From assembly GCF_003991155.1 (NCBI RefSeq), contig NZ_CP031293.1: a stretch of DNA of 64,000 nt. The stretch is one strand, 5' to 3'. The notes beneath the pieces are model-generated. The model ran no database searches. It was not told where the DNA came from and saw nothing but the letters and a program-made list of their open reading frames with translations. Below are positions 1 to 31,726 of the stretch, one piece after another; position 1 is the stretch's first letter, and each line of letters opens with the position of its first letter. This DNA is from Escherichia coli. GTDB taxonomy: Bacteria; Pseudomonadota; Gammaproteobacteria; Enterobacterales; Enterobacteriaceae. A program made the position numbers and the translations under genes.

Positions 1-1
1 T

Positions 2-559: not shown

Positions 560-2637
<2,078 letters not shown>

Positions 2638-2644
<7 letters not shown>

Positions 2645-3249: not shown

Positions 3250-3377
3250 GTGGCGTGCTGAGCAGGTGTGATGTTGTTGTCACACCCGGAGCCATTACCC
3301 GATGCGCAAGCTTATCGTGCCTACACATTATCTCAACACACGTAGGCCGGATAAGATGCGCCAGCATCGCATCCGGC

Positions 3378-3418
3378 AAAAAAAACGGGCATGGTGTCAC
3401 CACCCTGCCCGTTTCTCT
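3378..3418. terminator. Putative bidirectional rho-independent terminator between convergent hisI and wzzB
   Basis: A-run, GC-rich hairpin (acgggcatggtgtcaccaccctgcccgt), then T-rich tail; read on the minus strand the hairpin is followed by TTTTTTTT. Confidence 0.6.
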
Positions 3419-3434
3419 TAAATGCACAATAATA

Positions 3435-4415
3435 TTATTTCGCGTTGTAATTACGCAGCGCGTTACGCCCAAGCACAATCCCCGCGCCAACCATGCCGCC
3501 CAGCAGCACTGCCAGAATCAAGGTAATTGCCTTTTTCGGACTATCGCGACGAATAGGTAACGTCGGTTTCATCACATAACGGTAAGCATGAATATCAAGA
3601 TCATCAACCTTTAAGCTTTCGATATCAAGCAGGTTTTGACGAGTCTGATAGTAGTTTGGTGAGAACACCAACGGACGGGTCGCCTCATGCTTAATCATCG
3701 ACTCCAGCGCTTCGCTCCCCAAAAGGAACAACGTATCTTGTGTGATATCTTCGCCAGTCTGTTGAATCTGCGGTTTTGTCACCTGCGCCTGATTCGCATA
3801 CTGCAACGCTTCCTGAATCTGACGGATACGCAGATCTTTCTGCTCCTGCGCAACCACTTCCTGCGTTCTTAAAGAGTCCTGCAAGTTTTTCCGTCCCAGA
3901 GCAATGTTGTCCTTGAGATCCTTTTCTAACTCTTGATTCACTTTATCGTCAACTTGCTGAATGTATTGGGCCAACTTCATTTGTGCGCCCTCTGCAGTTT
4001 GCCCAACATAAGAAACAGTCAATGGTAATTGCTGGTTCTTAACAGAAGGTTCGATGGTAAGTTTTTCTGGTTCTTCCTGATTATCCAGCGTTTCTGCTAA
4101 TGCAGAGAAGGCAGAACTGAAGCGACCAATTAACGTCTCCTGCAAATCCGATACTTTCGGTGCAGCCTGACCATAGATAACATTCATGGCATTGTTATAG
4201 CCAGCAATTTGCCCCACATCGGGCTGAGTGATAATTGCTGTTGACGTCCATTTCTCCTTCGCTACTGCCAAATATCCAATAGCCAGGGCAATAGCCACAA
4301 TGACGGAAATGATGATTGTCATCTTGCCACGCCACAACTGCACTAGTAAATCAATCAAATCAATCTGTTCCGGGTCATGGTTTTGCCCAGAAACATTATT
4401 ATTTTCTACTCTCAT
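3435..4415 (-). CDS. wzzB: O-antigen chain-length determinant (polysaccharide co-polymerase)
   Basis: Translation from the internal Met (MRVENNNVSGQNHDPEQIDLIDLL...) gives 326 aa with N- and C-terminal hydrophobic segments; the ORF track's 12 extra N-terminal residues are probably not translated. Confidence 0.9.
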   Translation of the reverse strand: MRVENNNVSGQNHDPEQIDLIDLLVQLWRGKMTIIISVIVAIALAIGYLAVAKEKWTSTAIITQPDVGQIAGYNNAMNVIYGQAAPKVSDLQETLIGRFSSAFSALAETLDNQEEPEKLTIEPSVKNQQLPLTVSYVGQTAEGAQMKLAQYIQQVDDKVNQELEKDLKDNIALGRKNLQDSLRTQEVVAQEQKDLRIRQIQEALQYANQAQVTKPQIQQTGEDITQDTLFLLGSEALESMIKHEATRPLVFSPNYYQTRQNLLDIESLKVDDLDIHAYRYVMKPTLPIRRDSPKKAITLILAVLLGGMVGAGIVLGRNALRNYNAK

Positions 4416-4560
4416 CATTACCCTAACTGACGGAAATTTCCAAGTCCGCATAGTTTAGCGATAATCCTCATGAATGCTATAGGATAATTGATAAAAATAA
4501 TGAATTGTTACGCAAGTAACAAAAGACAATCAGGGCGTAAATAGCCCTGATAACAGGATG

Positions 4561-5736
<1,176 letters not shown>

Positions 5737-5974
5737 TCAGAATTAACTTAACTGTGAATCATGATGTTTTTAGCATCCTGATAAGAGTTAAAAGTTTTAA
5801 CGCTACGTTGTAAGATGGTCAACGCAACGAAAAACAATTCAGAATTTCTTTATAAGAATAGCTGATATTTATTAAGTTAATATTAAGCAGTGAAATTTAG
5901 TCTATAAGATAATTGGTAAAAAAAACCCGGCATAATATACGCCGGGCCTCAATTTTATTGTTGATTAAATCAGA

Positions 5975-7381
5975 TTAATCCAGCCATTCGGTATGGAACA
6001 CACCTTCTTTATCAATACGCTTATAAGTATGCGCACCAAAATAGTCACGCTGTGCCTGGATCAGGTTCGCAGGCAGAACAGCAGCACGGTAGCTGTCGTA
6101 ATAGGCAACCGCTGCGGAGAAGGTCGGAACCGGAATACCGTTCTGTACTGCATAAGCAACGACATCACGCAGCGCCTGCTGGTAGTCATCGGCAATTTGC
6201 TTGAAGTACGGAGCCAGCAGCAGGTTAGCGATCTGCGGATTTTCGGCATAAGCATCGGTGATTTTCTGCAGGAACTGCGCACGGATGATGCAGCCAGCAC
6301 GGAAAATCTTCGCGATTTCGCCGTAGTTCAGATCCCAGTTGTACTCTTCAGACGCAGCACGCAGCTGAGAGAAGCCCTGGGCGTAAGAAACGATTTTGCC
6401 CAGATACAGCGCACGACGAACTTTTTCGATGAACTCAGCCTTGTCGCCTGCTGGCTGTGCTTGCGGACCAGAGAGAACTTTAGATGCGGCAACACGCTGA
6501 TCTTTCAGAGAAGAGATATAACGTGCAAACACAGACTCGGTAATCAGCGACAGCGGTTCGCCGAGATCCAGCGCGCTCTGGCTGGTCCATTTACCGGTAC
6601 CTTTGTTAGCCGCTTCATCCAGGATCACATCAACCAGGTAGTTACCGTCTTCATCTTTTTTGGTGAAGATATCTTTGGTGATGTCGATCAGGTAACTGCT
6701 CAGTTCACCGTTATTCCACTCGGTAAAGGTCTGCGCCAGTTCTTCGTTGGTGAGGTTCAGGCCACCTTTAAGCAGAGAATAGGCTTCAGCAATCAGTTGC
6801 ATATCACCGTATTCGATACCGTTGTGAACCATCTTCACATAATGGCCTGCGCCATCGGCACCAATATAGGTAACGCATGGCTCCCCGTCTTCAGCTACTG
6901 CGGCGATTTTGGTCAGGATTGGTGCAACCAGTTCATAGGCTTCTTTCTGCCCACCAGGCATAATAGAAGGACCTTTCAGCGCGCCTTCTTCACCACCGGA
7001 GACACCGGTACCAATGAAGTTAAAGCCTTCGGCAGAAAGTTCACGGTTACGACGAATGGTGTCCTGGAAGAAGGTATTGCCACCATCAATGATGATGTCA
7101 CCTTTATCGAGATATGGTTTGAGGGAATCAATAGCAGCATCCGTGCCTGCACCTGCTTTCACCATTAACAGGATGCGACGAGGCGTTTCCAGAGATTCAA
7201 CAAACTCTTTCACCGTATAGTAAGGAACCAGTTTCTTGCCTGGATTTTCGGCAATCACTTCTTCCGTCTTTTCACGGGAACGGTTGAAAATAGAGACGGT
7301 ATAACCACGGCTTTCGATGTTGAGCGCAAGGTTGCGCCCCATCACTGCCATACCGACGACGCCGATCTGTTGCTTTGACAT
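5975..7381 (-). CDS. gnd: 6-phosphogluconate dehydrogenase (decarboxylating)
   Basis: 468-aa [24 protein letters not shown]...; classic gnd position flanking the O-antigen locus. Confidence 0.95.
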
Positions 7382-7544
7382 TGTATACTCCTGTCAGGGG
7401 GTGTTCACCGCCGAGTGTGCGGCTTAAATGTGGTATAGATGTTAACTCACTCATAGAGATGGTGAATAGCAGTACCTTTGCTATACCACACTGAATATCT
7501 CATCTTTTCCGTCTTTTAAAACTTATTTATATGAAATTACTGAA

Positions 7545-8915
7545 TTACTTGTTCAATAACGCAAGGATAAGTTTTGTCTTTTCTTCCATCAGCGGCACAT
7601 CACCGCGCGATTCCACATTCAGGCGCACCACCGGTTCGGTGTTGGAGGAGCGCAGGTTAAAGCGCCAGTCGGCAAAGGTCATGCTGATGCCATCGGTGCG
7701 ATCCACCGCCAGCGCCTCACGGCTAAAATGCTGTTCGACGCGATTAATCGCCTCAGCGGGTTGCGCCAGTTTGCTGTTGATCTCACCGCTTGCCGGAAAC
7801 GCTGCCATCCGGTCGCGCACCAGTTCGCCCAGCGTTTTTCCTTTCAGACACACCAGTTCGGCGACCAGCAGCCACGGGATCATGCCGCTGTCGCAGTAAG
7901 CGAAATCACGGAAATAGTGGTGGGCGCTCATTTCGCCACCGTAGATGGCGTCTTCCTTGCGCATACGTTCTTTAATAAAGGCGTGTCCGGTTTTCGACAT
8001 CACCGGTGTGCCGCCCGCGGCGGTCACCACATCAACGGTATTCCAAGAGAGACGTGGATCGTGGATGATCTTCGCGCCGGGATTTTTTTCGAGGAACGCT
8101 TCTGCCAGCAGGCCGACAATGTAGTAGCCCTCGATAAACTGCCCTTTTTCGTCAAACAGGAAACAGCGGTCAAAATCGCCATCAAAGGCAATGCCCATAT
8201 CCGCGCCGTGTTTAATGACCGCATTGCGGGTGTCGTCGCGACATTCCGGCAGCAGCGGGTTAGGAATACCGTTGGGGAAATTGCCGTCCGGCGTGTTGTG
8301 CACTTTGATCAATTCCACAGGTGCGCCGAGGGCTTTAAAGCGGGCTTCGATAGCGTCCACCACCGGACCCGCTGCGCCGTTCCCGGAGTTGATCACCAGC
8401 TTGAGCGGCGTGAGGTTTTTGACATTGATATAACCGAACAGGTGATCAACGTAAGCGTCACGCAGGTTGATTTGCTGATAGCGACCGCATTTGGTTTCAT
8501 CGACGGGAGGAAAGTCGTTGGCTTCAGCCAGACGCTGGACGTCGCGCAGTCCGGTATCTCCGCTGATCGGGCGAGCCCCCTCGCGAACCAGCTTCATGCC
8601 ATTATAATCCATCGGATTATGGCTGGCGGTAACTTCGATGCCGCCATCCACGCCGAGATGGAACGTGGCGAAATAGATCTCTTCGGTGCCGGACATGCCG
8701 ATATCCAGCACATCGACGCCCGCATCCTGTAAACCTCTCGCCAGCGCCAGTTTTAAGGTTTCGCTGGTGAGGCGGACGTCACCGCCTAACACAATGGTTT
8801 TCGGTTTGAGAAATTCGCCATAGGCGCGACCAATGCGCCACGCAATATCTTCATTCAGTTCTTCGCCTAATTTCCCGCGAATATCATAGGCTTTAAAGCA
8901 GGTTAATTTTTTCAT
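7545..8915 (-). CDS. manB: Phosphomannomutase (O-antigen locus copy)
   Basis: 456-aa ORF with phosphohexomutase active-site loop (TASHNP); near-identical to cpsG at 30266..31636 except mainly at the C-terminus. Confidence 0.9.
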
Positions 8916-8939
8916 ATAAAAACCTTACCAATAATAAAA

Positions 8940-9698
8940 TTATTTATGCGCAAACAATTGCATTAGTTTTGAGATTTTTCTGATAATGATAGCAATTTTC
9001 CAATTTACATTATGGTTTTTCATAACTTCTACAATTTCCTTTGTACTTGATATCGCGTTATCAATTCTGGTACTTTCCCCACCCAATCTCATCTTTACAA
9101 ATACTTGAGGAACATAAATAACTTTAATATCATCACGTTTCAAAATCCTGACCATCTGATCATAGTCTGCAGCAATCCTATAGGATAAATCAAAATATCC
9201 ATCGTCTTTATATAATTCCCTCCTCATATAGAAAGATGGATGCGGTGGTGCCCAGCCTAATGATAGCTTAGAACGTTTAAAAGGACCACTACGCCAGTAT
9301 CGTTTGATTATATCAGTTTGGTTTTTTTCGAAAAAAACCAAATCACCGTATACAACATCCGCTTTTGTCTCATGGAAACGGCTTACAATAGTTTCAATAA
9401 TATCAGGTCTTGCTAAAAGGTCATCAGAATGAACGAATCCAATAATATCTCCCGTAGATAAATTTATACCTTTATTTAAAGCATCATAGATACCGTTATC
9501 GCTTTCTGATAGACATTTGGTTACTCTTGTTGATACTTCGTTAATTAGTTTTAACGTATTATCTGTAGAACCACCATCAATAATTATATACTCTATATCT
9601 TTATAGGTTTGCAACTCTATTGACTCTAAAGTATCCCTTAAAGTCTTTTCACTATTATAAGTCACTGTAATAATACTGACTTTCATTTTAACATCCAA
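8940..9698 (-). CDS. Family-2 glycosyltransferase (WcaE-like), O-antigen cluster
   Basis: 252-aa ORF with GT2 motifs (VTYNSE..., DGGSTDNT, DNGIYDA, SDD); visibly AT-rich; alternative start 12 nt downstream (MKVSIITV). Confidence 0.7.
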   Translation of the reverse strand: MDVKMKVSIITVTYNSEKTLRDTLESIELQTYKDIEYIIIDGGSTDNTLKLINEVSTRVTKCLSESDNGIYDALNKGINLSTGDIIGFVHSDDLLARPDIIETIVSRFHETKADVVYGDLVFFEKNQTDIIKRYWRSGPFKRSKLSLGWAPPHPSFYMRRELYKDDGYFDLSYRIAADYDQMVRILKRDDIKVIYVPQVFVKMRLGGESTRIDNAISSTKEIVEVMKNHNVNWKIAIIIRKISKLMQLFAHK

Positions 9699-9769
9699 TA
9701 ATAATCATAATTAAATAACGTCAGTACAGCATTACGAATAATAATGTTGCATTAGTATCCAGCATCATT

Positions 9770-11170
9770 TTAGATTCTAACAACATCATCTTCATCCAAG
9801 TAGACACCTGAACGTACCTCAATAATCTCCAAAGGGATCTTTCCTGGATTCTCAATAAAATGAGGTACACCTATTGGTATATAAGTTGATTCATTTTCAG
9901 AAACAAGAAATATTTCATCTTCATAATGGACTTTTGCTGTTCCAGAAACAACAATCCAATGCTCAGTACGATGGTAATGAATCTGTTTAGCAGTTTTATG
10001 TCCAGGATGAATAACGACATGTTTAACCTCAAATCGAGATCCTTCCGCTATAGAGTCATGACTGCCCCATGGCCTAAATATTTCACGATGCTGCAGATAT
10101 TCCGTACGGTTATTAACCTTAAGTTTTTCTACAATATTTTTTACCTGTTGAACTTTATCTTTATGCGCAACGAGAATAGCATCTTTAGTTTCAACAACTA
10201 CTAAATCTTTAACTCCTACTACACCAATTAATCTATGTTGTGAGTAAAGATAACTGTCAGAAGAATCATGAATTAATACATCTCCTCTAATTGCATTTCC
10301 ACTTTTATCTTTTCTGCTAATTTCCCATAATGCAGACCAAGAACCAACATCGCTCCAGTGGGCATTTAATGGAACTACCACAGCCTCTGTTGTTTTCTCC
10401 ATAACAGCGTAATCAATGGATTCTTCAGGGCAACAACTAAATGAGTCATTATCTATACGGATAAAATCAAGATCTTGTGTAGAGGACTTCAATGCTTGTT
10501 GGCATATTTTTAGTATGTCTGGTCTAAATTTATTCAACTCATCAATAAACACAGAAGCCCTAAACATGAATATTCCACTATTCCAAAGATAATCTCCATC
10601 TTCAAGATATTTTTTGGCCACATCTAGCTCAGGCTTTTCAACAAAAGCAGAAACTTTAAAACCATATTCATTTAAATTTTCTCCGGTTTTTATGTAGCCA
10701 TATCCAGTTTCGGGTTTGGTTGGCACAATACCAAAAGTTACCAGCTTACCTTCCTCTGCAAATTCTTTTGCAGCCAATATTGACGATATAAAGCGCTTTT
10801 GGTCTTGTATTTCATGATCGGCTGCTAGTACAAGCAGTATTGGATCCTCACCTGATGAAATCGCTTTAAGAGCAGCAAGCGCAACTGCGGGGGCTGTATT
10901 ACGACCTATCGGCTCTAGTAAAATGCCACTATTCGCTAAATTTACATTACGCATTTGTTCTGCAACGATAAAACGATGAACTTCATTACAAATAACCAGA
11001 GCAGGACGATGTTCAACCCCTTCAAGCCTTCTTAAGGTCTCTTGTAGCATAGTCAAACGACTAGTTAACGATAGGAATTGCTTCGGATATAGTGTTCGAG
11101 AAAGTGGCCACAATCTAGTTCCAGAACCACCGGCCATTACAACAGGAAGTAGCATATAAATAACCTTCAC
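9770..11170 (-). CDS. manC: Mannose-1-phosphate guanylyltransferase (O-antigen locus copy)
   Basis: 466-aa ORF with nucleotidyltransferase motif (MAGGSGTRLWPLSR) and C-terminal cupin region; diverged paralogue of cpsB; true start may be the Met 15 nt downstream. Confidence 0.85.
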   Translation of the reverse strand: MKVIYMLLPVVMAGGSGTRLWPLSRTLYPKQFLSLTSRLTMLQETLRRLEGVEHRPALVICNEVHRFIVAEQMRNVNLANSGILLEPIGRNTAPAVALAALKAISSGEDPILLVLAADHEIQDQKRFISSILAAKEFAEEGKLVTFGIVPTKPETGYGYIKTGENLNEYGFKVSAFVEKPELDVAKKYLEDGDYLWNSGIFMFRASVFIDELNKFRPDILKICQQALKSSTQDLDFIRIDNDSFSCCPEESIDYAVMEKTTEAVVVPLNAHWSDVGSWSALWEISRKDKSGNAIRGDVLIHDSSDSYLYSQHRLIGVVGVKDLVVVETKDAILVAHKDKVQQVKNIVEKLKVNNRTEYLQHREIFRPWGSHDSIAEGSRFEVKHVVIHPGHKTAKQIHYHRTEHWIVVSGTAKVHYEDEIFLVSENESTYIPIGVPHFIENPGKIPLEIIEVRSGVYLDEDDVVRI

Positions 11171-11622
11171 TTAAAATAATTTTTTGTGTACTGATGAACT
11201 GAGGAATTAGCTAACAATTCGGCTATATCGAACCAATTGTAAGTACTATGTTGTAGTGTTGGATAGTTAATTTGATGTGGCATCAAACTAATCTCATATC
11301 CGTGTACGACATAATGAGTTGAAAAACAAGTCCCAGAAAAATTGTCGCTGTAGAAATGTTCATAAATCCCAAGAAATTTTGCTTCATTAATGCTAATTTG
11401 AACACCCAATTCTTCTAAAGTAACTCTTTTGAATGCGTTCTCGAAAGACTCATCTTTAAGAATCCGTCCCCCCGGCACAAACCAATAATTTTGTGCTGGA
11501 CGATTAAGGCGCTGACCAAGCAGCGCCTTACCATCTTCGTTTCTTATAATAAGGTCTATCGAGATTAGTGGAGTATGTTCAACTATTGATTTAAATAACT
11601 CTGTTTCTAATCTCTTGTTCAA
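11167..11622 (-). CDS. gmm: GDP-mannose mannosyl hydrolase (Nudix), O-antigen locus copy
   Basis: 151-aa ORF, paralogue of the colanic acid gmm/wcaH (shared YWFVPGGR motif); sits between fcl and manC. Confidence 0.8.
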   Translation of the reverse strand: MNKRLETELFKSIVEHTPLISIDLIIRNEDGKALLGQRLNRPAQNYWFVPGGRILKDESFENAFKRVTLEELGVQISINEAKFLGIYEHFYSDNFSGTCFSTHYVVHGYEISLMPHQINYPTLQHSTYNWFDIAELLANSSVHQYTKNYFK

Positions 11623-11624
11623 TA

Positions 11625-12590
11625 TTAACTCCTAAATGAGTCAAGATTATTTATAAACCATTTATATGTTAATTCTAGTCCTTGTTTTAAATTATAACGA
11701 TATTTCCAACCCAAATTCTCAAGGCGTGTAACATCCATAAGTTTACGAGGCGAACCATCTGGTTTTGTTATATCAAAAACAATTTTTCCATCATAGCCAA
11801 CAACTAAAGCCATTGTTTCTGCCATTTCACGTATGGAACAATCAACACCAGTACCTACGTTAATATGAGATAACATTGGTTGAGTATTTTTTTTATAAAT
11901 TTCATCATCAAGCTCCATCACATATACTGATGCAGCGGCCATATCATCAACATATAAAAACTCGCGTTTTGGAGTTCCCGTTCCCCAGACAACCACTTCA
12001 TTTAAACCAAGTTCCTTTGCTTCATGAAAACGCCGCATAAGCGCTGGAATTACATGTGAGTTATTGGGATGAAAATTATCATTCATACCATATAAGTTAG
12101 TAGGCATTACACTGCGATAATCACATCCATATTGGCGATTATAAGATTCACATAGCTTTATACCTGCTATTTTGGAAATAGCATAAGGCTCATTAGTAGG
12201 CTCAAGAGTTCCCGTCAAAAGTGCAGATTCTTTCATTGGCTGTTCTGCAAACTTTGGATAGATACAACTTGACCCTAAGAATAATAGTTTCTTTATGCCC
12301 GCTTTGTAAGATGAGTGAATAATATTGCTTTCAATAAGAAGGTTCTGATAAATAAATTCAGCTGGAAAAGTGTTATTAGCATGAATTCCTCCTACTTTTG
12401 CTGCTGCAAGGTAAACCTGATCTATTCTCTCTTGCTCAAAAAAACATTCAACATCCTTTTGAACTGTCAAATCGAGTTCTTTGTGAGTTTTGACAATTAA
12501 CTCAACATCATTACGTGCTAATAATTGACGACAAATAGCAGAACCAACCATCCCACGATGTCCAGCCACAAAAATTCGCTTCTTGGTCAT
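11625..12590 (-). CDS. fcl: GDP-L-fucose synthase (O-antigen locus copy)
   Basis: 321-aa ORF ([19 protein letters not shown]...) clearly paralogous to the fcl at 34970..35935. Confidence 0.9.
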
Positions 12591-12593
12591 ACT

Positions 12594-13715
12594 TTAACGC
12601 TCCAAAGAGACTGCCACGTCAAAACCATGGCTTTTAAGAAGTGCATGCTGTTTAGCTTTTTCTAAATCACTAGCCACCATTTCTGCACACATTTCTTCAA
12701 CTGTAATCTCTGGCTCCCAACCCAAGACATTTTTTGCTTTTGTTGGATCACCAAGAAGAGTTTCAACTTCTGCTGGTCGAAAATAACGAGGGTCAACGCG
12801 AACAATAACATCACCAATATTAACACCAACGGCGCAATCTGATGTTTTATTTACAACAAATGCAATCTCATCAACACCAGTACCGGAAAACTCAAGTTCA
12901 AGTCCAACTTCTTTAGCAGACATACGGACAAATTCACGTACAGATATTTGTTTGCCGGTGGCAATAACAAAGTCTTCTGGCTGGTCTTGTTGAAGCATCA
13001 TCCATTGCATACGAACATAATCTTTCGCATGCCCCCAATCGCGTAAAGAATCCATGTTGCCAAGATATAAGCATTTTTCTATTCCCTGCGATATATTAGC
13101 TATAGCACGTGTGATTTTACGTGTTACAAACGTTTCCCCACGACGTGGGGATTCATGATTGAACAAAATACCGTTACATGCATACATTCCATAAGACTCA
13201 CGATAGTTTACAGTGATCCAATATGCATACAGTTTAGCTACGGCATAAGGTGAACGAGGATAGAACGGCGTTGTCTCTTTTTGTGGAACTTCCTGAACTA
13301 ATCCATACAATTCAGAGGTTGACGCCTGATAAAATCGGGTTTTTTTTTCTAATCCCAAAAAACGAATAGCTTCCAATAATCGTAAAGTACCTATAGCATC
13401 AACATCAGCTGTATATTCTGGGGATTCGAAGGAAACAGCTACGTGACTCATTGCGCCAAGATTATAAACTTCATCAGGTTGAACTTCAGATAATATCCGA
13501 GTCAAATTAGAAGTATCTGTTAAATCACCATAATGAAGTTGTAATTTTAAATTACGATGGTGTGGGTCTTGATATATATGATCAATACGGTCAGTATTAA
13601 ACAAGGAAGATCGACGTTTTATTCCATGAACCTCATAGCCTTTTTTAAGCAGAAATTCTGCCAAGTAGGAACCATCTTGCCCGGTAATTCCTGTAATTAA
13701 AGCTTTCTTACACAT
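12594..13715 (-). CDS. gmd: GDP-mannose 4,6-dehydratase (O-antigen locus copy)
   Basis: 373-aa ORF ([17 protein letters not shown]...) highly similar to the colanic acid gmd at 35938..37059. Confidence 0.95.
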
Positions 13716-13725
13716 AAATAACCTC

Positions 13726-14733
13726 TCAAAACTTAGATAGTGATTTATATAGATTATATGTTTCGGAGAAACACTTCCCCCATGAAAATTTATTAGATTG
13801 CGCTAATCCTTTATTTTTTAATTCATTAGCGTTAGCTTCTACACTTAATAAAGCTGAGAATAAACTTTCAATTGATACTTCTTCGACTAAAATCGCACTA
13901 TCCCCCACAACCTCGGGTATTGATGATCTATTTACGGCTATCACAGGACAGCCAGTTCGCATAGCCTCAAGCAAGGGAATTCCAAACCCTTCATATTCTG
14001 AAGGATAGATTAAGCAATAAGCCGAATTATATAATATATTTAGTTTTTCATTTGATACCTTCCCTAAGTACTGGAATCTTTCTGGAAGATATTCAGATAG
14101 TAACTTCATTTCTGCTTTATTTAAACCACCTCCGCCGACTATTTTAAGATTAGTATCAAAAAGTTTAGAAATGGCTTTAACTGCAAGCTCAAAATTTTTA
14201 TATCCTGAACGAGCACCGACAAAAAGCACAAAATTTTCTTTTTCTAGATTTAAGTGTCTATAATCTTCCGATACACCATTATGAATAACATGTATCTTTT
14301 TTTCATCAACCTTAAAGAAATTAATTAAATCCTTGGCTGTATTATTAGAGACACAAATGATTGCATCGCTATGTTTCACAGCCCATCTTTTTTGTAAGCT
14401 ATGAACATTGCGCCGAAGTCCTTTCATATACAATTCATATGTGAAATCGTGGACCGTGGTCACAACCGCATATTCCCCATCTTTCGGAACCCGATAATAT
14501 GTAGAATGAAATATACTGTAATCTGAATCACTTTTTAATGCTTCAAAACATCTATATCGTTCTAAAAACCGGCATGGCCGATGGAGATCATCATTGTGAT
14601 TTTCATTTTTATCATTAAATTGAATGAACTTGTATTCGTCATTTTTTAATCTCTTAATGATTTCTTCAAAGTATACAGTGATACCACCATATGATTGTAA
14701 ACTTTTCACAATCCCATCATATAATATTTTCAT
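13726..14733 (-). CDS. Family-4 (GT-B) glycosyltransferase, O-antigen cluster
   Basis: 335-aa ORF with C-terminal [13 protein letters not shown] motif typical of GT4 enzymes; AT-rich. Confidence 0.7.
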
Positions 14734-14801
14734 TTTTTGTTTTCATATATATAGATAACAATACAGTAAGCAATGAAATGGATGATTATAATTGTTTCAA
14801 T

Positions 14802-15818
14802 TTACTCTTTATATCCATTTGGATTCATTGTTTGCCATCTCCATGCATCTTCCACCATATTATTAAGAGTCCTTTTAGCAACCCAACTTAGCTGCTCGTT
14901 TGCTAAGGAAGGATCGGACCAACATTCAGCCACATCTCCATTTCGCTCAGAAACGATACGGAAAGGTATATCGCGTCCTGTTTCCAGTTTAAAAGCGTCG
15001 ATGATATCTAACACACTATAACCTTGACCAGTGCCTAAATTAAAAACTTTAAGCCCCTGGTTTCTATTGAGATTTTTTAAAGCGGCAAGATGCCCCTCAA
15101 CTAAATCGACTACATGGATATAATCTCTTACACCTGTTCCATCTTTTGTCATATATTTATTACCAAAAACATTTAGATAGGGTAATTTTCCAATTGCGAC
15201 TTGCGCAACATAGGGAAACAGGTTATTAGGAGTTCCTAAAGGATCTTCTCCAATTAATCCAGTCTCATGAGCACCTACAGGATTAAAATATCTTAGTATT
15301 GTGATATTTGCGTCGCTATTCGCGTTACAAAAATCACGCAATATATGTTCCACCATAAACTTTGAACGACCGTACGGATTGATCACCTCACCGACAGGGT
15401 GTTTTTCAGATATTGGAACATAATGAGGATTGCCATAGACAGTAGCAGACGAACTAAAAATTAGATTAGAAATATTCGCTTTCTGCATTTCATCAAGTAA
15501 TATTAGAGTCCCCAAAAGATTTGTGTCGTAATATTCTAATGGTTTTTTAATGGACTCGTTAACAGATTTTAAACCCGCAAAATGCATTACAGTAGAAACA
15601 TTATATTTTGAAAAGATATTTTTTAATATATGTCTATCTCTAATATCACCACGTAATTTTTTTATCTTAGATAAGCAAATTTCCTCTACTCGTTCTAGAG
15701 ATTTTGGAGAGGAATTGCAATAATTATCTAGCGATATAACATCATATCCATTTTGCAATAAAGTTAATATAGCATGTGAGCCAATATAGCCAGCCCCACC
15801 AGTCACAAGTATGCTCAT
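14802..15818 (-). CDS. UDP-hexose / UDP-N-acetylhexosamine 4-epimerase (GalE family)
   Basis: 338-aa ORF with N-terminal TGGAGYIGSH Rossmann motif and overall GalE-like layout; embedded in the O-antigen cluster; substrate not determinable from sequence. Confidence 0.85.
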   Translation of the reverse strand: MSILVTGGAGYIGSHAILTLLQNGYDVISLDNYCNSSPKSLERVEEICLSKIKKLRGDIRDRHILKNIFSKYNVSTVMHFAGLKSVNESIKKPLEYYDTNLLGTLILLDEMQKANISNLIFSSSATVYGNPHYVPISEKHPVGEVINPYGRSKFMVEHILRDFCNANSDANITILRYFNPVGAHETGLIGEDPLGTPNNLFPYVAQVAIGKLPYLNVFGNKYMTKDGTGVRDYIHVVDLVEGHLAALKNLNRNQGLKVFNLGTGQGYSVLDIIDAFKLETGRDIPFRIVSERNGDVAECWSDPSLANEQLSWVAKRTLNNMVEDAWRWQTMNPNGYKE

Positions 15819-15838
15819 ACTTTAATAGCTCCAATACC

Positions 15839-16906
15839 TTAATTTTCTTGACTATTGGCTCGATTGATCAAACTCATCCACTGAGCACTAACTATTTCTT
15901 CTGTATAATGTCTATTCACGAATAGGAATCCTGCATTTCCGTGTTCGGTTCGTTTAACATTATCTTCAAAGTAAGTTAGTTTTTCCTGAAATTCAATTTG
16001 AGATTGACACACAAATCCGCCACCCGATGAAGAAATCACGCTACTTGTCCCTCCAGATATATCCATTGAAATTACAGGTAATCCGTAGGACATAGCTTCA
16101 AGTATTGTAACAGGAAAACATTCAAAGTATGAACCGGATACAAAAACATCACTTTTTGCCAAAAAAACATCTGTGTTTAAACTCGGTCCATGAAAGTGTA
16201 TTTGGTTGTTATTCTTATATTTAGATTTGAGATACTCCAGCTCTTGACCACCTCCTACAATGTGTAAAACATACTTTTTTGTAGACGGGTGATTTATTAC
16301 TGCATTAATTAACCTTTCAACTCCTTTATCTTTAACAATCCGACCAATATAAATCAAATCAAGAGTTTCTTTTCCTTGATGTATGCGCTTATATTTTTGC
16401 GTTTTGATTGAATTTGGTATAATTACAACCCTTTTACAAAAAGTAAACTTATCTTTTTCCTTGTGAGAATTACAAACTACTACAGCTTTTTTATTAAGAG
16501 ACAAAAGAAATTTAAATACTTTTCTCCAAAAAATACTATTCTTGTCAAATGGATAATGTTCCCAGCAAATAATTTTATTCTTATTATACCGAAAAAAACC
16601 AATCAATAACAATAATGATGATGTAGCTATATCCGTGGAAATTATTAATTCAAGGTCTTTACTTTTGGCACTCAAAAAAAACAAATATTTAATGTAAAAC
16701 CTTAATTTGCTTTCTTCATATGCAGTATTGTCTTGGAATAAGTAGGTTTTCCGATTATCTTCTCTAACTTGTATCTCTTGTGCGTTTATTGCTGAAAAAC
16801 ATCTCACTTGTAGGCTGTTTTTAGTTAATATATCAATTAGATTTTCAACTGCTTTCTCAGTGCCACCTATTTTATTTTCATACAGCTTAAAGACTCCAAT
16901 GGACAT
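15839..16906 (-). CDS. Family-4 (GT-B) glycosyltransferase, O-antigen cluster
   Basis: 355-aa ORF with GT4-type C-terminal motif (FECFPVTILEAMSYGLPVIS). Confidence 0.7.
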   Translation of the reverse strand: MSIGVFKLYENKIGGTEKAVENLIDILTKNSLQVRCFSAINAQEIQVREDNRKTYLFQDNTAYEESKLRFYIKYLFFLSAKSKDLELIISTDIATSSLLLLIGFFRYNKNKIICWEHYPFDKNSIFWRKVFKFLLSLNKKAVVVCNSHKEKDKFTFCKRVVIIPNSIKTQKYKRIHQGKETLDLIYIGRIVKDKGVERLINAVINHPSTKKYVLHIVGGGQELEYLKSKYKNNNQIHFHGPSLNTDVFLAKSDVFVSGSYFECFPVTILEAMSYGLPVISMDISGGTSSVISSSGGGFVCQSQIEFQEKLTYFEDNVKRTEHGNAGFLFVNRHYTEEIVSAQWMSLINRANSQEN

Positions 16907-16907
16907 T

Positions 16908-18143
16908 TTATTGACTCACTCTTATATATTCTGCTGATTTAACTTCTTTATTGAATAGGAATAATGAGGGCTTATACAATATATCGCACCAAGACACATA
17001 AATAATATCTTTACCCATATTTGCCTGTGCCAAATTTATGATTGAACATGCGGTAATGAGTATTAAGAAGATCAGATGCTTACATAGTTTGCTAATTTTA
17101 TTAATATCGTAGGAGAAAAATATATAACTATATAATAACACCCAGAAAATGGAAAATCGATAAAATAAATCAGGCGATAACGATAAAAGGCATATCAGCA
17201 AAAGAAGTAAACTGCAAAAATTTTTGATTTGTGACTCTTGCCTCGTCATTTTTTTATTAAATAAAATTAAATAGATAAAAGTAAAAATAAAAAACACTGA
17301 CGGTAATATGATCTTATTCAAGATATATTCATTAGTGCTCAGCAAGCTATTGCTTATGCCTATGGTTACAGAGTCCATATATTCGGGAAAGTAAAAACCT
17401 AAGCTTTCCAATAATGGCCTAATCAATTGAAATAGCAAAGAAGATATTAACCCATCATGGTTAAGGATTAGAACTAATATTATTAAATACAATATTGTTT
17501 TGTTAAGTCTTATTAATTTGCTAACAAAAAAAACACCTAGCAATAGTATTGCGCTGGGATGAATACAACATGAAATAATTGCAGAGAATATAATTTTTTG
17601 TGACTTATACCTATTATTTTCACTGGTGAAATACTGTATAATCATATAAAGCATAATACTAAATGCAAGATATTGCCGCAATGAACTAGCTATAGCAAAA
17701 AATGGGATTACGCTTATTAGAATATATAAATATATACATCTATGAGATAATTCCGGATTGTATTTTTTAATGTAATTAACATATATATTAAAATAAAAAA
17801 TATATGATAAAAATGTTGAAAAAAAAGGTAAAAATTCTTTTTTTATTCCTAAAGATTTAAATAAATAAATAACAGTATTTATTGTAATATATCTATTGTC
17901 ACTATTTTCAAAAACTTTGTTTAGTGATGTTTGACTAACATATAAATATGTTTCATAATGCCTAGTCAAATCCCAATTTTCATAAGGTATTAACAAAAAT
18001 GCTAGTACCCCTAGCATAAATGAACATACATAAACACTCCATCTGGCCCCATTAATCATTTCAATCATTGCTAATAATAAAGCAAGAGGCAAATAAATTA
18101 TTGAAATAAATGAAGCACTAATTTTTATGTTTCTATTAATCAT
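16908..18143 (-). CDS. wzy: O-antigen polymerase
   Basis: 411-aa very hydrophobic, multi-pass, AT-rich ORF with low similarity to anything else in the window, between glycosyltransferases; typical Wzy signature. Confidence 0.65.
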   Translation of the reverse strand: MINRNIKISASFISIIYLPLALLLAMIEMINGARWSVYVCSFMLGVLAFLLIPYENWDLTRHYETYLYVSQTSLNKVFENSDNRYITINTVIYLFKSLGIKKEFLPFFSTFLSYIFYFNIYVNYIKKYNPELSHRCIYLYILISVIPFFAIASSLRQYLAFSIMLYMIIQYFTSENNRYKSQKIIFSAIISCCIHPSAILLLGVFFVSKLIRLNKTILYLIILVLILNHDGLISSLLFQLIRPLLESLGFYFPEYMDSVTIGISNSLLSTNEYILNKIILPSVFFIFTFIYLILFNKKMTRQESQIKNFCSLLLLLICLLSLSPDLFYRFSIFWVLLYSYIFFSYDINKISKLCKHLIFLILITACSIINLAQANMGKDIIYVSWCDILYKPSLFLFNKEVKSAEYIRVSQ

Positions 18144-18865
18144 CTTTTTATAACTTTTCTCATAAATAGGTAAATATCTGCTAACGCCGCATATAATTTC
18201 CCGTTTCTTTTCTTTCGGATTTGTCTCGCTTCCTCCAATGCTAATTTTACATTTTTAGCGCTAAGGCCGGCATTTCTCATCGAAGAGATATTTTTATCAA
18301 TATAATGAAAGATATAACCTTGTTTCTTCAATTTTAGCAAAAGATCATAATCAGAAGCAATTTTATAGCTAGTATTAAATAAATTTTCTCTGTGGATATC
18401 TTTTCTAATAAATGTGGCCGGATGGCTTAAATTCATATCTATATGTAGTTTCCAGTCTTTAGGCCTCCGGACCTGAATAACATCCAAGCTATCAGCCTCT
18501 ACCAAAGACATATTTCCATAAATAACATCATATTTATTTTCTTTCATTACTTTTATTACTTGACATAATACATCTTTATTATAAAAATCATCAGCGTTTA
18601 TAAATCCTATATAATTTCCAGATGCTTTTAACACACCTTTATTCATTGCATCATATATACCATTATCATTTTCAGAAATGATATATGAAATTTCATTTTT
18701 GTAAGAATTAACAATATTTAGAGTATTATCCGTTGATGCACCATCAATTATAATATATTCAATGTCATCATTGCAGTTTTGTGATAAGACACTTTTTATA
18801 GTATCTTCGATATACATTTCGCCATTGTACACAACGGTAACTATTGTTAAAGTTGGTTTATTCAT
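18140..18865 (-). CDS. Family-2 glycosyltransferase (WcaE-like), O-antigen cluster
   Basis: 241-aa ORF with GT2 motifs ([28 protein letters not shown]); paralogous to the GT2 at 8940..9698 and to wcaE. Confidence 0.7.
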   Translation of the reverse strand: MNKPTLTIVTVVYNGEMYIEDTIKSVLSQNCNDDIEYIIIDGASTDNTLNIVNSYKNEISYIISENDNGIYDAMNKGVLKASGNYIGFINADDFYNKDVLCQVIKVMKENKYDVIYGNMSLVEADSLDVIQVRRPKDWKLHIDMNLSHPATFIRKDIHRENLFNTSYKIASDYDLLLKLKKQGYIFHYIDKNISSMRNAGLSAKNVKLALEEARQIRKKRNGKLYAALADIYLFMRKVIKR

Positions 18866-18873
18866 TGTTAGCC

Positions 18874-20109
18874 CTACAATAAATTTAAATTATTTAATTT
18901 ATTTGTTTTCTTAATCAAAAAGTAAAATCTCGCCATTATTATAAACTCAGTTGAAATAACTCCTATTGCTGTACCAACTCCTGAGTATTCATTAGTCAAA
19001 TAAGTAATTATCAGTAGGCCTATTAATCCACTGGTAGTAATAATTTTTGTAAATTCTTTTTTCATACCAATAGGGATCATTACTAAAATTGCAATATAAT
19101 TACTTACCGTAACTATTGCTGGAGTAAAAGCTAAAACTTTGAGTATTTCTAAAGATTCATGATACGTTTTTCCATACATGATTAAAATTATATCGTCTGC
19201 AAAAAAGTAAAGAAATATGGAAAGTACGAACATCAGTGAAAATTGCCATCGAAACACTTTCCTGGCTAATAATAGTCCATCGTCATGATTATCCTTCATT
19301 ATATAAGTTACTCTAGGAAAAACAGCTTGGGTTATAGGACCAATAACGCCTTGTAGTGCAAGCCTAATTTTATCTGCAGCGATAAAATATCCCACTGCAG
19401 TTGTTCCTGATAATGCACCTAATATTATTGTTGAACTAGTAGTATAAAGGCTTATTGCTGCAGAGGAAATGAAGTAATGCCATCCATCATAAATTAACTC
19501 TTTCATTTTGGATAAGGATGGTGGTACCCATATTATTTTTTTAAGAGAAAATAAAAAATATGTAGATATTATACCTGCAATAACTGTTATTGATGATTGT
19601 ATTGTTATCGCTATACCAAGATCCTTTTCACTTTTAACCAATAAAAATGTTAAACATAGTGTAAGTAAGCGTGCGGAAAACATACTTATCGCTATTCCTA
19701 ACATTTTTTCCAGCCCTTGAAAAAACCATACTGGATATATTAAATTTCCTACGACAGATATGTATGCAAGAATGATAAATTTAATTTGGTAATCAATGAT
19801 ATTCAATTCCGAAATTAAATAAATAATTAACAAACCAAGAGATGCTGCAATTATTTTGATAAACGTTACATTCCAAAAAACTTTACTTATGGAATCAGTA
19901 TTTTCCCTTGATATTGATATGATTTTGGGCGCTGAGTAGTTAAATCCGTAATCAATAAATAATATAAAATATTGGACCACAGCAAAACTATACCCATATA
20001 TCCCGTATCCTGTAGGTTCAAGGATCCTGACAAGATAAGGCAGTGTGACCAATGGAAATATATAATTGCCACCTTGAACGCTTAATAAATAGATGATGTT
20101 TTTTAACAT
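18874..20109 (-). CDS. wzx: O-antigen flippase
   Basis: 411-aa polytopic membrane ORF with Wzx/MOP-family-like N-terminus; first gene downstream of the JUMPstart/ops element. Confidence 0.7.
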   Translation of the reverse strand: MLKNIIYLLSVQGGNYIFPLVTLPYLVRILEPTGYGIYGYSFAVVQYFILFIDYGFNYSAPKIISISRENTDSISKVFWNVTFIKIIAASLGLLIIYLISELNIIDYQIKFIILAYISVVGNLIYPVWFFQGLEKMLGIAISMFSARLLTLCLTFLLVKSEKDLGIAITIQSSITVIAGIISTYFLFSLKKIIWVPPSLSKMKELIYDGWHYFISSAAISLYTTSSTIILGALSGTTAVGYFIAADKIRLALQGVIGPITQAVFPRVTYIMKDNHDDGLLLARKVFRWQFSLMFVLSIFLYFFADDIILIMYGKTYHESLEILKVLAFTPAIVTVSNYIAILVMIPIGMKKEFTKIITTSGLIGLLIITYLTNEYSGVGTAIGVISTEFIIMARFYFLIKKTNKLNNLNLL

Positions 20110-20189
20110 AACGAGCCTACGTACTTAACAAGTCTTATTTTGCACGATAGTTTACAATTTGTTAAGTAATATGGGATAAACATTTAATT

Positions 20190-20201
20190 CACGCTACCGC
20201 C
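20190..20201 (-). promoter_or_regulatory. ops element (GGCGGTAGCGTG on the coding strand) within a JUMPstart-like leader of the O-antigen operon
   Basis: Exact reverse complement cacgctaccgcc seen on the + strand in the galF-wzx intergenic region. Confidence 0.8.
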
Positions 20202-20481
20202 CCTGGCTCAACAGCTACCAGCGTACTGCATGCATGTCCTAGTTGTACCTAGCATTAACCGTTATGGTTAGTTCGAAAAGCTTAACTCTGAACGTTTTAC
20301 CAAATCGCTTCAGAGATGGAGAAAATCTCAGCCTCCCACAATAAATGCCTATTGAAAAGTTATTGTTACTCATATTTAGAACGGTATAAAGAAAGAATGA
20401 GGCAATGAGTACAATTAGCCCCACGAATCCTCACCGCCGTTATAATTTTCTTATCAACCGTTACATCCGGTCAGATTTTCA

Positions 20482-21375
20482 TTATTCGCTTAACAGCTTT
20501 TCAATACCTTTACGGAACTTCGCCCCTTCTTTCAGGTTGCGCAGTCCATACTTCACAAACGCCTGCATATAGCCCATTTTCTTGCCACAATCGTAACTGT
20601 CACCGGTCATCAGCATTGCATCAACGGACTGTTTTTTCGCCAGTTCAGCAATGGCATCAGTCAGCTGAATACGCCCCCATGCACCAGGTTGAGTGCGTTC
20701 AAGTTCCGGCCAAATATCGGCAGAAAGCACATAGCGACCAACGGCCATGATGTCTGAGTCCAGCGTCTGCGGCTGATCCGGTTTTTCGATAAATTCAACA
20801 ATGCGGCTGACTTTGCCTTCACGATCCAGCGGCTCTTTGGTCTGAATAACGGAGTATTCAGAAAGGTCACCCGGCATACGTTTTGCCAGCACCAGGCTAC
20901 GGCCCGTTTCATTGAAGCGCGCAATCATGGCAGCAAGGTTGTAGCGCAGCGGGTCGGCGCTGGCGTCGTCGATCACTACGTCTGGCAGTACCACGACAAA
21001 TGGGTTGTCGCCAATGGCGGGTCGTGCACATAAAATGGAGTGGCCTAAACCTAAAGGTTCGCCCTGACGCACGTTCATAATGGTCACGCCAGGCGGACAG
21101 ATAGACTGCACTTCCGCCAGCAGTTGACGCTTCACGCGCTGTTCAAGGAGAGATTCTAATTCATAAGAGGTGTCGAAGTGGTTTTCGACCGCGTTCTTGG
21201 ACGCGTGAGTTACCAGGAGGATTTCTTTGATCCCTGCAGCCACAATCTCGTCAACAATGTACTGAATCATTGGCTTGTCGACGATCGGTAGCATCTCTTT
21301 GGGTATCGCCTTAGTGGCAGGCAACATATGCATCCCAAGACCCGCTACCGGTATAACTGCTTTTAAATTCGTCAT
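20482..21375 (-). CDS. galF: UTP-glucose-1-phosphate uridylyltransferase-like regulatory subunit
   Basis: 297-aa ORF ([43 protein letters not shown]...); canonical position upstream of the O-antigen cluster. Confidence 0.9.
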
Positions 21376-21617: not shown

Positions 21618-22613
21618 TTACTCAGAAACAAACGTTATGTCGTCTTTTTTGGCATGGACGAATTCATACTGCAGAGTTCGATCCAGACCTTGCGACAGCG
21701 TATACGGTGCCACAAAACCTGAAGAATGCACTTTCGTTGCGTCAAACTGTGTTGTTGCGCAGAATTTTTTCACGCGCACTGAGCTGACAGCGTATTTTTT
21801 GCCCGTAATTTTGCTCAGGATATCAAAACAATATCCCCCCAGCATTCCTAGTGGGTAAGGCAAGTGCATAGAAGGGATCTTTTTGTTCAGGCTTTGTTCA
21901 ACTTCAGCAACCAACTGGTTCATGTTCAGGTCTGGCTTATCAACGTAGTTATAAACCTCATAACCTGCGGCAACATTCTTCAGTTTGTACTTGATAAACT
22001 CAACAATGTTTCCAACATAAGCCATGGACTTATAGTTAGTCCCTGCGCCCACCATCATAAACTTGCCGCCAGCGATCTGTTTCAGCAAGTTATAGACGTT
22101 ACCGCGGTTGCGTTCACCGAAGATAACGGTAGGACGGATGATGGTTAATGAACGTTCTGTTGGTGCTTTGTTATACCATTCACGCAGCACTTCCTCTGCC
22201 TGCCACTTACTTTTGCCGTAGTGGTTGAAAGGGTCGTGTGGATGGTTTTCGTCAGGGTTGTGTTTGTTCAAACCATAAACAGCAACGGAACTGGTAAAGA
22301 TGATATTTTTAACGCCATTTTTTTCCATGGCAGCCAACACATTGCGGGTACCCTGAACGTTGACATCATAATAGAGAGAAGTAGGGCTGACGTCATCGCG
22401 GTGTTCCGCTGCCAGTAGCACAACAGTGTCAAAACCGGCTAACGCCTGGTCGAGTGCCTGTTGATCACGAACATCGCCAATCTGTGTGATTTCTGGATAA
22501 AAGTGGCTCTGCTGTTTGTCCAGGTTCTTGATATTAAAGTCAGCAATTGCCGTTTCAAGTAGTCGGGTTCCTACGAATCCGGAAGCTCCTATGAGCAAAA
22601 CGTTATCGTTCAT
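21618..22613 (-). CDS. gnu: NAD-dependent epimerase of the Z3206 type (annotated as Gne or Gnu in other E. coli), between wcaM and galF
   Basis: 331-aa ORF with N-terminal GASGFVGTRL Rossmann motif; size and position match the epimerase found at this site in several non-K-12 serogroups; identity from memory, not searched. Confidence 0.65.
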   Translation of the reverse strand: MNDNVLLIGASGFVGTRLLETAIADFNIKNLDKQQSHFYPEITQIGDVRDQQALDQALAGFDTVVLLAAEHRDDVSPTSLYYDVNVQGTRNVLAAMEKNGVKNIIFTSSVAVYGLNKHNPDENHPHDPFNHYGKSKWQAEEVLREWYNKAPTERSLTIIRPTVIFGERNRGNVYNLLKQIAGGKFMMVGAGTNYKSMAYVGNIVEFIKYKLKNVAAGYEVYNYVDKPDLNMNQLVAEVEQSLNKKIPSMHLPYPLGMLGGYCFDILSKITGKKYAVSSVRVKKFCATTQFDATKVHSSGFVAPYTLSQGLDRTLQYEFVHAKKDDITFVSE

Positions 22614-31636: not shown

Positions 31637-31726
31637 ATCGTTACCCTTTTTCAGGCAATAGTTGGCCCTGACCGAAACGGCCAATTTTGTTTTTGTCGTT
31701 ATTTACATCGCGGTTTCGCATTCATT

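Follow-up and report, generated by a model that had tools for sequence, protein, structure and literature searches.

A probable serogroup O11 O-antigen gene cluster between galF and gnd of Escherichia coli

Serogroup O11 is reportedly prevalent among porcine extraintestinal pathogenic Escherichia coli in China, and the O-antigen cluster of strain PCN033, which is O11 by serology, has been compared with the GenBank record HQ388393 (PMC4578781). The clusters of O11 and OX19 are 98-99.9% identical, yet the two serogroups reportedly do not cross-react (DebRoy et al., PMC4732683), so that sequence alone cannot separate these near-identical but serologically distinct loci. For the first sugar of an O unit, prediction rules built on gne and gnu have been set out (PMC3682973), and the role of gnu is described in that work and in PMC7685785. 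Here we analyse a window of 64,000 nucleotides of E. coli DNA, the whole stretch under study, and place its galF-gnd region among these and related loci.

We find that the galF-gnd stretch is very probably a Wzx/Wzy-dependent O-antigen biosynthesis operon of E. coli serogroup O11, judging by its gene families and its matches to typed and annotated genomes; the O11 cluster is an already catalogued serogroup locus, and nothing in it is new. Between galF and gnd lie 12 intact open reading frames (ORFs) on the minus strand, whose order and families match the annotation of an identical cluster and which run, in the direction of transcription, wzx, GT2, wzy, a GT4-type glycosyltransferase, a GalE-family epimerase, GT4, gmd, fcl, gmm, manC, GT2 and manB. 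This is the gene list and order that the first-pass annotation had proposed between gnd and galF, and both our ORF map and the RefSeq annotation agree with it. The features of the region are as follows:

3435..4415, minus strand: wzzB, O-antigen chain-length determinant; annotation mapped from a near-identical record (2 mismatches to the window over 28.2 kb)
5975-7381: gnd, flank; above the NCBIfam cut-off
7545..8915, minus strand: manB, phosphomannomutase; NCBIfam NF011943 (CpsG), 1049 bits against a cut-off of 801
8940..9686, minus strand: distal GT2-family glycosyltransferase; annotated family 2, NCBIfam GT2 matches sub-threshold
9770..11155, minus strand: manC, mannose-1-phosphate guanylyltransferase/mannose-6-phosphate isomerase; NCBIfam TIGR01479, 740 bits against a cut-off of 373
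11167..11622, minus strand: gmm, GDP-mannose mannosyl hydrolase (Nudix); NCBIfam NF011963, 195 bits against a cut-off of 146
11625..12590, minus strand: fcl, GDP-L-fucose synthase; NCBIfam NF047922, 538 bits against a cut-off of 500
12594..13715, minus strand: gmd; NCBIfam TIGR01472, 585 bits against a cut-off of 415
13726..14733, minus strand: GT4-family glycosyltransferase, 335 aa; annotated family 4, NCBIfam matches sub-threshold
14802..15818, minus strand: GalE-family 4-epimerase, 338 aa; NCBIfam GalE, 428 bits against a cut-off of 262
15839..16906, minus strand: GT4-type (Glycos_transf_1) glycosyltransferase, 355 aa; sub-threshold NCBIfam matches to GT4-type enzymes
16908..18143, minus strand: wzy, predicted O-antigen polymerase, 411 aa; Pfam EpsG PF14897, 3.3e-12
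18140..18865, minus strand: GT2-family glycosyltransferase, 241 aa; assigned at family level only
18874..20109, minus strand: wzx, O-unit flippase, 411 aa; Pfam Polysacc_synt PF01943, 4.7e-57
20190..20228, minus strand: JUMPstart, 39 nt; Rfam RF01707, 57.0 bits against a gathering score of 35, E = 1.9e-10
20482-21375: galF, flank; above the NCBIfam cut-off
21618..22613, minus strand: gnu-type epimerase (Und-PP-GlcNAc 4-epimerase), upstream of galF and outside the cluster proper

Two annotated starts lie inside the longest ORF, at 11155 rather than 11170 for manC and at 9686 rather than 9698 for the distal GT2 gene. For both GT2 and both GT4-type proteins, the only NCBIfam matches are to general glycosyltransferase models; the best match of the product of 18140..18865 is WcaE-like, at 100 bits far under the 369-bit cut-off, and we therefore assign it to the GT2 family only. 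The Salmonella orthologues of three of these enzymes carry Pfam Glycos_transf_2 (18140..18865), Glycos_transf_1 (15839..16906), and Glyco_transf_4 with Glycos_transf_1 (13726..14733).

The serogroup can be approached through the distribution of the cluster and its allele identities. A full-length match to 7545-20201 (12.66 kb), with identity of up to 100%, occurs in 65 of 5,426 complete E. coli genomes, and exactly 65 of the 5,426, PCN033 included, carry wzy at an identity of at least 99.2%. The wzy-GT2-wzx block is found at full length only in those 65, with at most 8% of its length matched elsewhere among the 5,426. Taking at least 98% identity of wzx and wzy to O11 alleles as the mark of the serogroup, we found 100% identity to the genes that the RefSeq annotation of matching E. 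coli genomes names 'O11 family'. The O11 label is based on this gene naming and on strain PCN033, which shares 99.8% wzy identity with the window. It had been stated earlier that the exact serogroup could not be assigned by reading the sequence alone; this did not hold, as the wzx and wzy matches allow O11 or OX19 to be named, and in silico typing of the window strain gives O11 (or OX19), a result whose value is one of annotation only.

The same near-identity of the O11 and OX19 clusters leaves room for a source strain that is serologically OX19 and carries this very cluster, its epitope being altered by an unlinked factor, a modification gene for example. The wzy alleles of the 65 genomes, which form groups at 100%, about 99.8% and about 99.5% identity, could reflect such differing antigenic forms, but O11 is far commoner than OX19 in a reference-centre collection (527 compared to 28 cultures; PMC4732683) and the wzy of O11-typed PCN033 differs from that of the window by 0.2% only, and we regard an OX19 strain as decidedly unlikely. 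We give slightly more credit, though still little, to the broader idea that an unlinked modification locus decides between the O11 and OX19 antigens and that the wzy allele groups might track that locus.

Under the favoured O11 assignment, the operon appears intact, with no pseudogene flags on the 12 genes in identical annotated RefSeq records. Among the other O11 genomes, two (H106 and H107) have an IS1 inside wzy. A cell may nevertheless carry the cluster and make no O antigen (rough or semi-rough) if wecA, waaL, rfaH, core genes or regulation are defective: complete yet unexpressed clusters are found in some serogroups (review PMC7685785), and these candidate genes lie outside the window, which is silent on them. 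Against this, none of the 12 genes is damaged and dozens of independent isolates carry them in identical form, the JUMPstart is intact and wzy is without IS1, unlike in H106 and H107, which makes a rough phenotype very improbable in our judgement.

For the O11 operon, the gene content outlines a fucose-containing unit processed by Wzx and Wzy. The first-pass annotation had proposed a full GDP-L-fucose pathway, and manB, manC, gmd, fcl and gmm each score above their curated NCBIfam cut-offs; ManB, ManC, Gmd and Fcl would lead from mannose-6-phosphate to GDP-L-fucose, with Gmm acting as a predicted GDP-mannose hydrolase. Its proposal of Wzx/Wzy processing is likewise upheld by Pfam matches to both proteins, Pfam being used because neither Wzx nor Wzy has an NCBIfam match at E <= 1e-5. 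Both are polytopic membrane proteins with at least eight hydrophobic segments each (strongly so in Wzx), and the product of 16908..18143 is taken to be the Wzy polymerase from its EpsG match, its polytopic character and its serogroup-restricted distribution. Neither an ABC transporter (wzm/wzt) nor an initiating transferase is present among the 12 ORFs, which agrees with the earlier suggestion of four glycosyltransferases acting on an initial HexNAc; with four such enzymes and no initiating transferase, initiation by WecA on HexNAc is to be expected.

In the pathway that we propose, WecA, encoded elsewhere, would start the unit as Und-PP-GlcNAc, which the gnu product probably converts to Und-PP-GalNAc. 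The gnu gene is annotated as N-acetyl-alpha-D-glucosaminyl-diphospho-undecaprenol 4-epimerase and probably decides the first sugar of the unit; its product and the one from the Salmonella O:16 locus share 94% identity, and no gnu is found upstream of galF in K-12. Four more sugars, including one or more L-fucose residues, would then be added by the two inverting GT2 and the two retaining GT4-type enzymes, giving a predicted repeat unit of five sugars. Wzx would flip this unit and Wzy polymerise it to a chain length governed by WzzB, and WaaL would finally attach the polymer to lipid A-core. Our literature search found no text giving a repeat-unit structure for O11 or Salmonella O16, and PMC6712391 mentions neither; the sugar composition (a five-sugar, fucose-containing unit with a GalNAc start) and the glycosyltransferase assignments therefore stay predictions.

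The epimerase within the cluster (14802..15818) is 51% identical to K-12 GalE and carries that name in NCBIfam. The residue at the position of E. coli GalE Tyr299 gates N-acetylated substrates, where a small residue would mark an active site that admits them, and a Cys aligns with it both here and in the Salmonella O:16 orthologue. Given a Cys at this gate, the enzyme probably supplies UDP-GalNAc, perhaps UDP-Gal as well, and we infer that it is probably of the Gne type (UDP-GlcNAc/UDP-GalNAc), possibly also acting on UDP-Glc/UDP-Gal.

Upstream of wzx, the JUMPstart is 35/39 identical to that of K-12 and forms a conserved island amid a diverged spacer, with the ops octamer GGCGGTAG at 20201-20194 on the coding strand. 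A JUMPstart/ops element had been placed ahead of the genes before, and the Rfam match supports this, but the end coordinate then given for the cluster, 20201, keeps only the ops part: the operon 5' region extends to at least 20228. The element sits in the 5' untranslated region of the operon. A single transcript starting in the galF-wzx spacer would span all 12 genes, and recruitment of RfaH at ops would let RNA polymerase read through 12.6 kb of AT-rich DNA. Scans for promoters and terminators were uninformative: promoter-like sites numbered 48, with 58.4 expected, and terminator-like sites 7, with 8.8 expected. We therefore name no promoter or terminator.

The cluster had been described as AT-rich relative to its flanks, and this is true of 8916-20201, where the GC content is 0.33 compared to 0.495 in the left flank and 0.517 in the right, but not of manB (7545-8915), whose GC content is 0.55. 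At third codon positions, GC is 0.23-0.30 in the cluster genes and 0.52-0.55 in gnd and galF, and wzy has the lowest overall GC content of the cluster (0.26). The manB gene is 96.3% identical in DNA to the colanic-acid cpsG of the same window (30266-31636) over 1,335 bp, a likeness limited to the coding sequence, and this CDS-confined identity together with its GC content rules it out as part of an imported low-GC block. The algC RNA motif is found upstream of cpsG, but ahead of the O-antigen manB no match reaches its gathering score. The five functions of manB, manC, gmm, fcl and gmd recur in the colanic-acid genes cpsG, cpsB, gmm/wcaH, fcl and gmd, which belong to a separate operon with its own JUMPstart; the last four are old paralogues of native GC content, with 58%, 49%, 71% and 83% protein identity, respectively.

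The first-pass annotation had set the cluster apart from the K-12 rfb cluster, and gene content, Wzx and Wzy all confirm the distinction. K-12 O16 occupies the same galF-gnd locus, uses the same Wzx/Wzy pathway type and retains the JUMPstart, but it has rmlBDAC and glf instead of manB, manC, gmd, fcl, gmm and the epimerase, contains wbbH-L with wbbL interrupted by IS5, and lacks gnu upstream of galF. We rejected K-12 O16 as the identity of the cluster: its Wzy is unrelated (WbbH, E = 0.88) and its Wzx (RfbX) is 38% identical. The two observations that had been named beforehand as speaking against the earlier reading, a wzx or wzy match to K-12 and the lack of a GC difference, were both looked for and neither was seen.

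Parts of the cluster recur in a surface-polysaccharide locus of Vibrio parahaemolyticus. There, GT2-wzy-GT4 (47%, 34% and 38% identity) and GT4-gmd-fcl-gmm-manC (47%, 79%, 69%, 51% and 61%) keep the order that they have in O11, and the specific genes are low in GC in both. The context differs, with a Wza-like exporter and Wzz upstream and with extra genes; the Vibrio Wzx has no detectable similarity to that of O11, and the locus is without a GalE-family epimerase or an equivalent of the second GT2. Shared with Salmonella O:16 as well, these two modules may reflect a fucose-containing substructure that the loci have in common and that passes from genus to genus in one piece.

Much closer is Salmonella enterica O:16 (group I). 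The closest foreign Wzy, at 56% identity, is that of serovars Saphra, Hull and Hvittingfoss, which we take to be O:16 serovars. The Salmonella locus is collinear with O11 throughout (gnu, galF, wzx, GT2, wzy, GT, epimerase, GT4, gmd, fcl, gmm, manC, GT2, manB, gnd) and likewise has a JUMPstart with ops, low GC content (0.28-0.39) and a GC-rich manB. Li et al. (2011, PMID 21205000) reportedly described a relationship between O11 and Salmonella O16, with which the collinear loci agree. The two clusters are 66-78% identical at the DNA level; at the protein level the figure is 50-85% (Wzy 56%, Wzx 67%, Gmd 85%), against 94% for the flanking GalF and Gnu.

This likeness bears on the earlier suggestion of horizontal acquisition. 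The dip in GC content is real, but as the Salmonella O:16 cluster is collinear and equally AT-rich, import is only one reading of it. The low-GC block might not be a recent import but an old galF-gnd polymorphism predating the split of E. coli and Salmonella, or something acquired long ago, as would fit the sharing of all 12 genes, their order, their locus and their low GC content, and the spread of the O11 cluster through E. coli isolates of many hosts and countries with a wzy divergence of at most 0.8%. The gap between cluster proteins and flanking GalF and Gnu is compatible either with two independent acquisitions, the donors being related, or with much more rapid evolution, and the two modules shared with Vibrio parahaemolyticus point to movement between genera; on balance, we hold an old origin of the block to be a serious possibility that stops somewhat short of being probable.

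Whatever its age, the cluster finds its nearest relatives within E. coli O11 itself. In the RefSeq genomes of PCN033 and 2016C-3878, as presumably in the O11 reference (strain G1207, GenBank HQ388393; Li et al. 2011), the locus, the 12 genes and their order are the same, and the cluster of 2016C-3878 is 100% identical in DNA to that of the window, with no detectable difference. The O11 locus thereby illustrates textbook features of such clusters: an AT-rich, serogroup-specific block with conserved DNA on either side, predicted RfaH/JUMPstart control, a manB that is rich in GC and homogenised with cpsG, and a collinear counterpart in Salmonella.

By its sequence, the O-antigen gene cluster at 7545-20201 is that of serogroup O11 or OX19, and is thereby an already known, catalogued serogroup cluster. 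We found the interval at 100% identity over 100% of its length in 65 of 5,426 complete E. coli genomes, where PGAP names two of its products 'O11 family O-antigen flippase' and 'O11 family O-antigen polymerase', and the window differs from strain 2016C-3878, which carries the O11 cluster, by 2 bases in 28.2 kb. Whereas a sensitive search recovered the wzy-GT2-wzx block at full length and at least 99.5% identity in these same 65 genomes, in every other genome it reached at most 8% of the length at about 70% identity. Searched alone, wzy occurs in exactly 65 genomes at 99.2% identity or more, including (at 99.8%) PCN033, which is O11 by serology and for which a cluster comparison against HQ388393, the O11 reference, has been published (PMC4578781). 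For OX19, a cluster sharing 98-99.9% identity with that of O11 has been reported, without serological cross-reaction (DebRoy et al., PMC4732683), so that sequence narrows the serogroup to O11 or OX19. Two O11-cluster genomes from bullfrog isolates, NZ_CM184330.1 and NZ_CM184333.1 (RefSeq matches H106 and H107), have an IS1 inside wzy and are thus probably semi-rough variants.

The ORF map places 12 consecutive minus-strand ORFs in the interval, flanked by gnd (5975-7381) and galF (20482-21375), and recovers the same genes that the first-pass annotation had listed there.

Genes of the cluster, in order of transcription
18874-20109, minus strand, wzx
18140-18865, minus strand, GT2 glycosyltransferase
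16908-18143, minus strand, wzy
15839-16906, minus strand, GT4-type glycosyltransferase
14802-15818, minus strand, GalE-family epimerase
13726-14733, minus strand, GT4 glycosyltransferase
12594-13715, minus strand, gmd
11625-12590, minus strand, fcl
11167-11622, minus strand, gmm
9770-11155, minus strand, manC
8940-9686, minus strand, GT2 glycosyltransferase
7545-8915, minus strand, manB

The products of manB, manC, gmm, fcl, gmd, the epimerase gene, galF and gnd score above curated NCBIfam cut-offs. The four glycosyltransferases match general GT2/GT4 models only, far under any equivalog cut-off, and are therefore assigned at the family level. The profile search of the cluster proteins gave no NCBIfam match for Wzx or Wzy; in Pfam they fall into Polysacc_synt (4.7e-57) and EpsG (3.3e-12), respectively, and each has at least eight strongly hydrophobic segments. 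At the gene-family level, the full GDP-L-fucose route proposed earlier is present (ManB, ManC, Gmd and Fcl, plus Gmm), as is the proposed Wzx/Wzy processing, with a flippase, a polymerase and four transferases, and the 12 genes include neither an ABC transporter nor an initiating transferase. A wzzB gene lies nearby, at about 3435-4415.

At this locus, K-12 MG1655 carries rmlBDAC, rfbX, glf, wbbH-K and an IS5-interrupted wbbL, and homology to K-12 picks up again roughly 25 nt upstream of gnd and roughly 50 nt beyond the galF stop codon. Over its entire length, the O11 Wzx (18874-20109, minus strand) shares 38% identity with RfbX, the flippase of K-12 O16 (10338-11585 in L002, the K-12 comparison locus), whereas the polymerases (Wzy against WbbH, no significant similarity, E = 0.88) and the remainder of the two clusters are unrelated. 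These values and the different gene content rule out the K-12 O16 cluster as the identity of this one. Neither wzx nor wzy is a K-12 match and the GC difference from the flanks is large, the two points on which the first-pass annotation had staked its reading; its observation is confirmed and its interpretation supported, with small corrections.

One of these concerns base composition. The reported AT-richness holds for 8916-20201 (GC 0.33, compared to 0.495 for 1-7544 and 0.517 for 20202-64000) and does not hold for manB (GC 0.55). Likewise, GC3 is 0.23-0.30 in eleven cluster genes compared to 0.52-0.55 in gnd and galF, with manB the exception at 0.64. Over 1,335 bp, from the start codon to 38 nt before the stop, manB is 96.3% identical to the colanic-acid cpsG of the same window (30266-31636), with no similarity beyond the coding sequence, whereas the other four GDP-fucose genes share only 49-83% protein identity with their colanic-acid paralogues. 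The AT-rich block is thus real but ends at the manB start codon. The O-antigen manB and cpsG form a direct repeat with copies about 22.7 kb apart, and deletion of the O-antigen cluster in the O14 type strain has been ascribed to manB-cpsG recombination (PMC7685785). The colanic-acid cluster thus gives the window another complete GDP-L-fucose gene set, made up of cpsG, cpsB, gmm, fcl and gmd (30266-37059, minus strand; compare 7545-13715, minus strand). Directly upstream of cpsG, Rfam detects an algC RNA motif (78 bits, 31641-31690, minus strand); none reaches threshold upstream of the O-antigen manB, consistent with an identity tract that ends at the start codon.

The ops/JUMPstart element placed ahead of the cluster was also recovered: CAGTACGCTGGTAGCTGTTGAGCCAGGGGCGGTAGCGTG (20228-20190, minus strand), in the galF-wzx spacer, scores 57 bits as JUMPstart in Rfam (gathering score 35) and includes ops GGCGGTAG at 20201-20194. 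It is conserved at 35 of 39 positions relative to K-12, an island amid an otherwise diverged spacer. Given this extent, the end coordinate 20201 cuts the element and retains the ops part alone. A second JUMPstart (57.3 bits, 46168-46206, minus strand) lies upstream of wza, the head of the colanic-acid operon.

Following established knowledge of Wzx/Wzy-dependent synthesis (PMC7685785, PMC3682973), WecA would make Und-PP-GlcNAc, the four transferases would complete a predicted five-sugar, fucose-containing unit, and Wzx would flip it for polymerization by Wzy, length control by WzzB and ligation by WaaL; the composition of the O11 repeat unit is a prediction. Between galF and wcaM lies a gnu-type Und-PP-GlcNAc 4-epimerase gene (21618-22613, minus strand), shared with the Salmonella O:16 locus (94% identical) and absent from K-12; its product probably turns the Und-PP-GlcNAc made by WecA into Und-PP-GalNAc, which makes GalNAc the predicted first sugar. 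In the cluster epimerase, a Cys aligns with Tyr299 of E. coli GalE, which we take from the structural literature to be the gate against N-acetylated substrates, so that this enzyme probably acts as Gne, supplying UDP-GalNAc for a later residue.

Elsewhere in the window, five tandem copies of SIB RNA/ibs toxin (type I toxin-antitoxin; Rfam 139-150 bits) lie at 61696-63157 (plus strand) with a spacing of about 328 bp, in the yegL-mdtA spacer; the same spacer in K-12 has two SIB copies only, sibA and sibB. Five tandem naRNA4 (REP/BIME-type) repeats occupy the wcaK-wzxC spacer (26793-27251, plus strand). Mapping from the annotation of the matching strain NZ_CP029747.1 places genes for a RelE/ParE-family toxin and for a helix-turn-helix protein between asmA and yegH (about 48306-48924). 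At about 57-61 kb, where K-12 yegJ sits between yegI and pphC, the window-matching strain has these two adjacent on the same strand, with no yegJ annotated.

A search of 5.8 billion protein clusters yielded just four relatives for Wzy, one of them the O11 protein itself; the others are from Salmonella enterica (56% identity), Vibrio (34%) and, as a weak match, Vibrio splendidus. Named members of the Salmonella cluster belong to serovars Saphra, Hull and Hvittingfoss, which we take to be O:16 serovars in the Kauffmann-White scheme. A Salmonella contig runs wcaM, gnu, galF, then the 12 O11 genes in identical order, then gnd, with protein identities from 50% (Gmm) and 56% (Wzy) up to 85% (Gmd), 94% each for GalF and Gnu, a cluster GC of 0.28-0.39 as in O11 and a manB that is GC-rich too (0.61). 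This correspondence reproduces the relationship between E. coli O11 and S. enterica O16 that Li et al. 2011 state in their title. A foreign origin would fit the low GC. However, because the Salmonella cluster is collinear, equally AT-rich and at the same locus, we tentatively suggest, at somewhat short of an even chance, that the block may be old and not recently imported; as the cluster proteins (50-85% identity) are far less conserved than the flanking genes (94%), separate acquisitions from related donors are also possible. A Vibrio parahaemolyticus surface-polysaccharide locus (contig L008, 8271-18780) has GT2-wzy-GT4 (47%, 34% and 38% identity) and GT4-gmd-fcl-gmm-manC (47%, 79%, 69%, 51% and 61%) in the same order as O11, its specific genes likewise low in GC.
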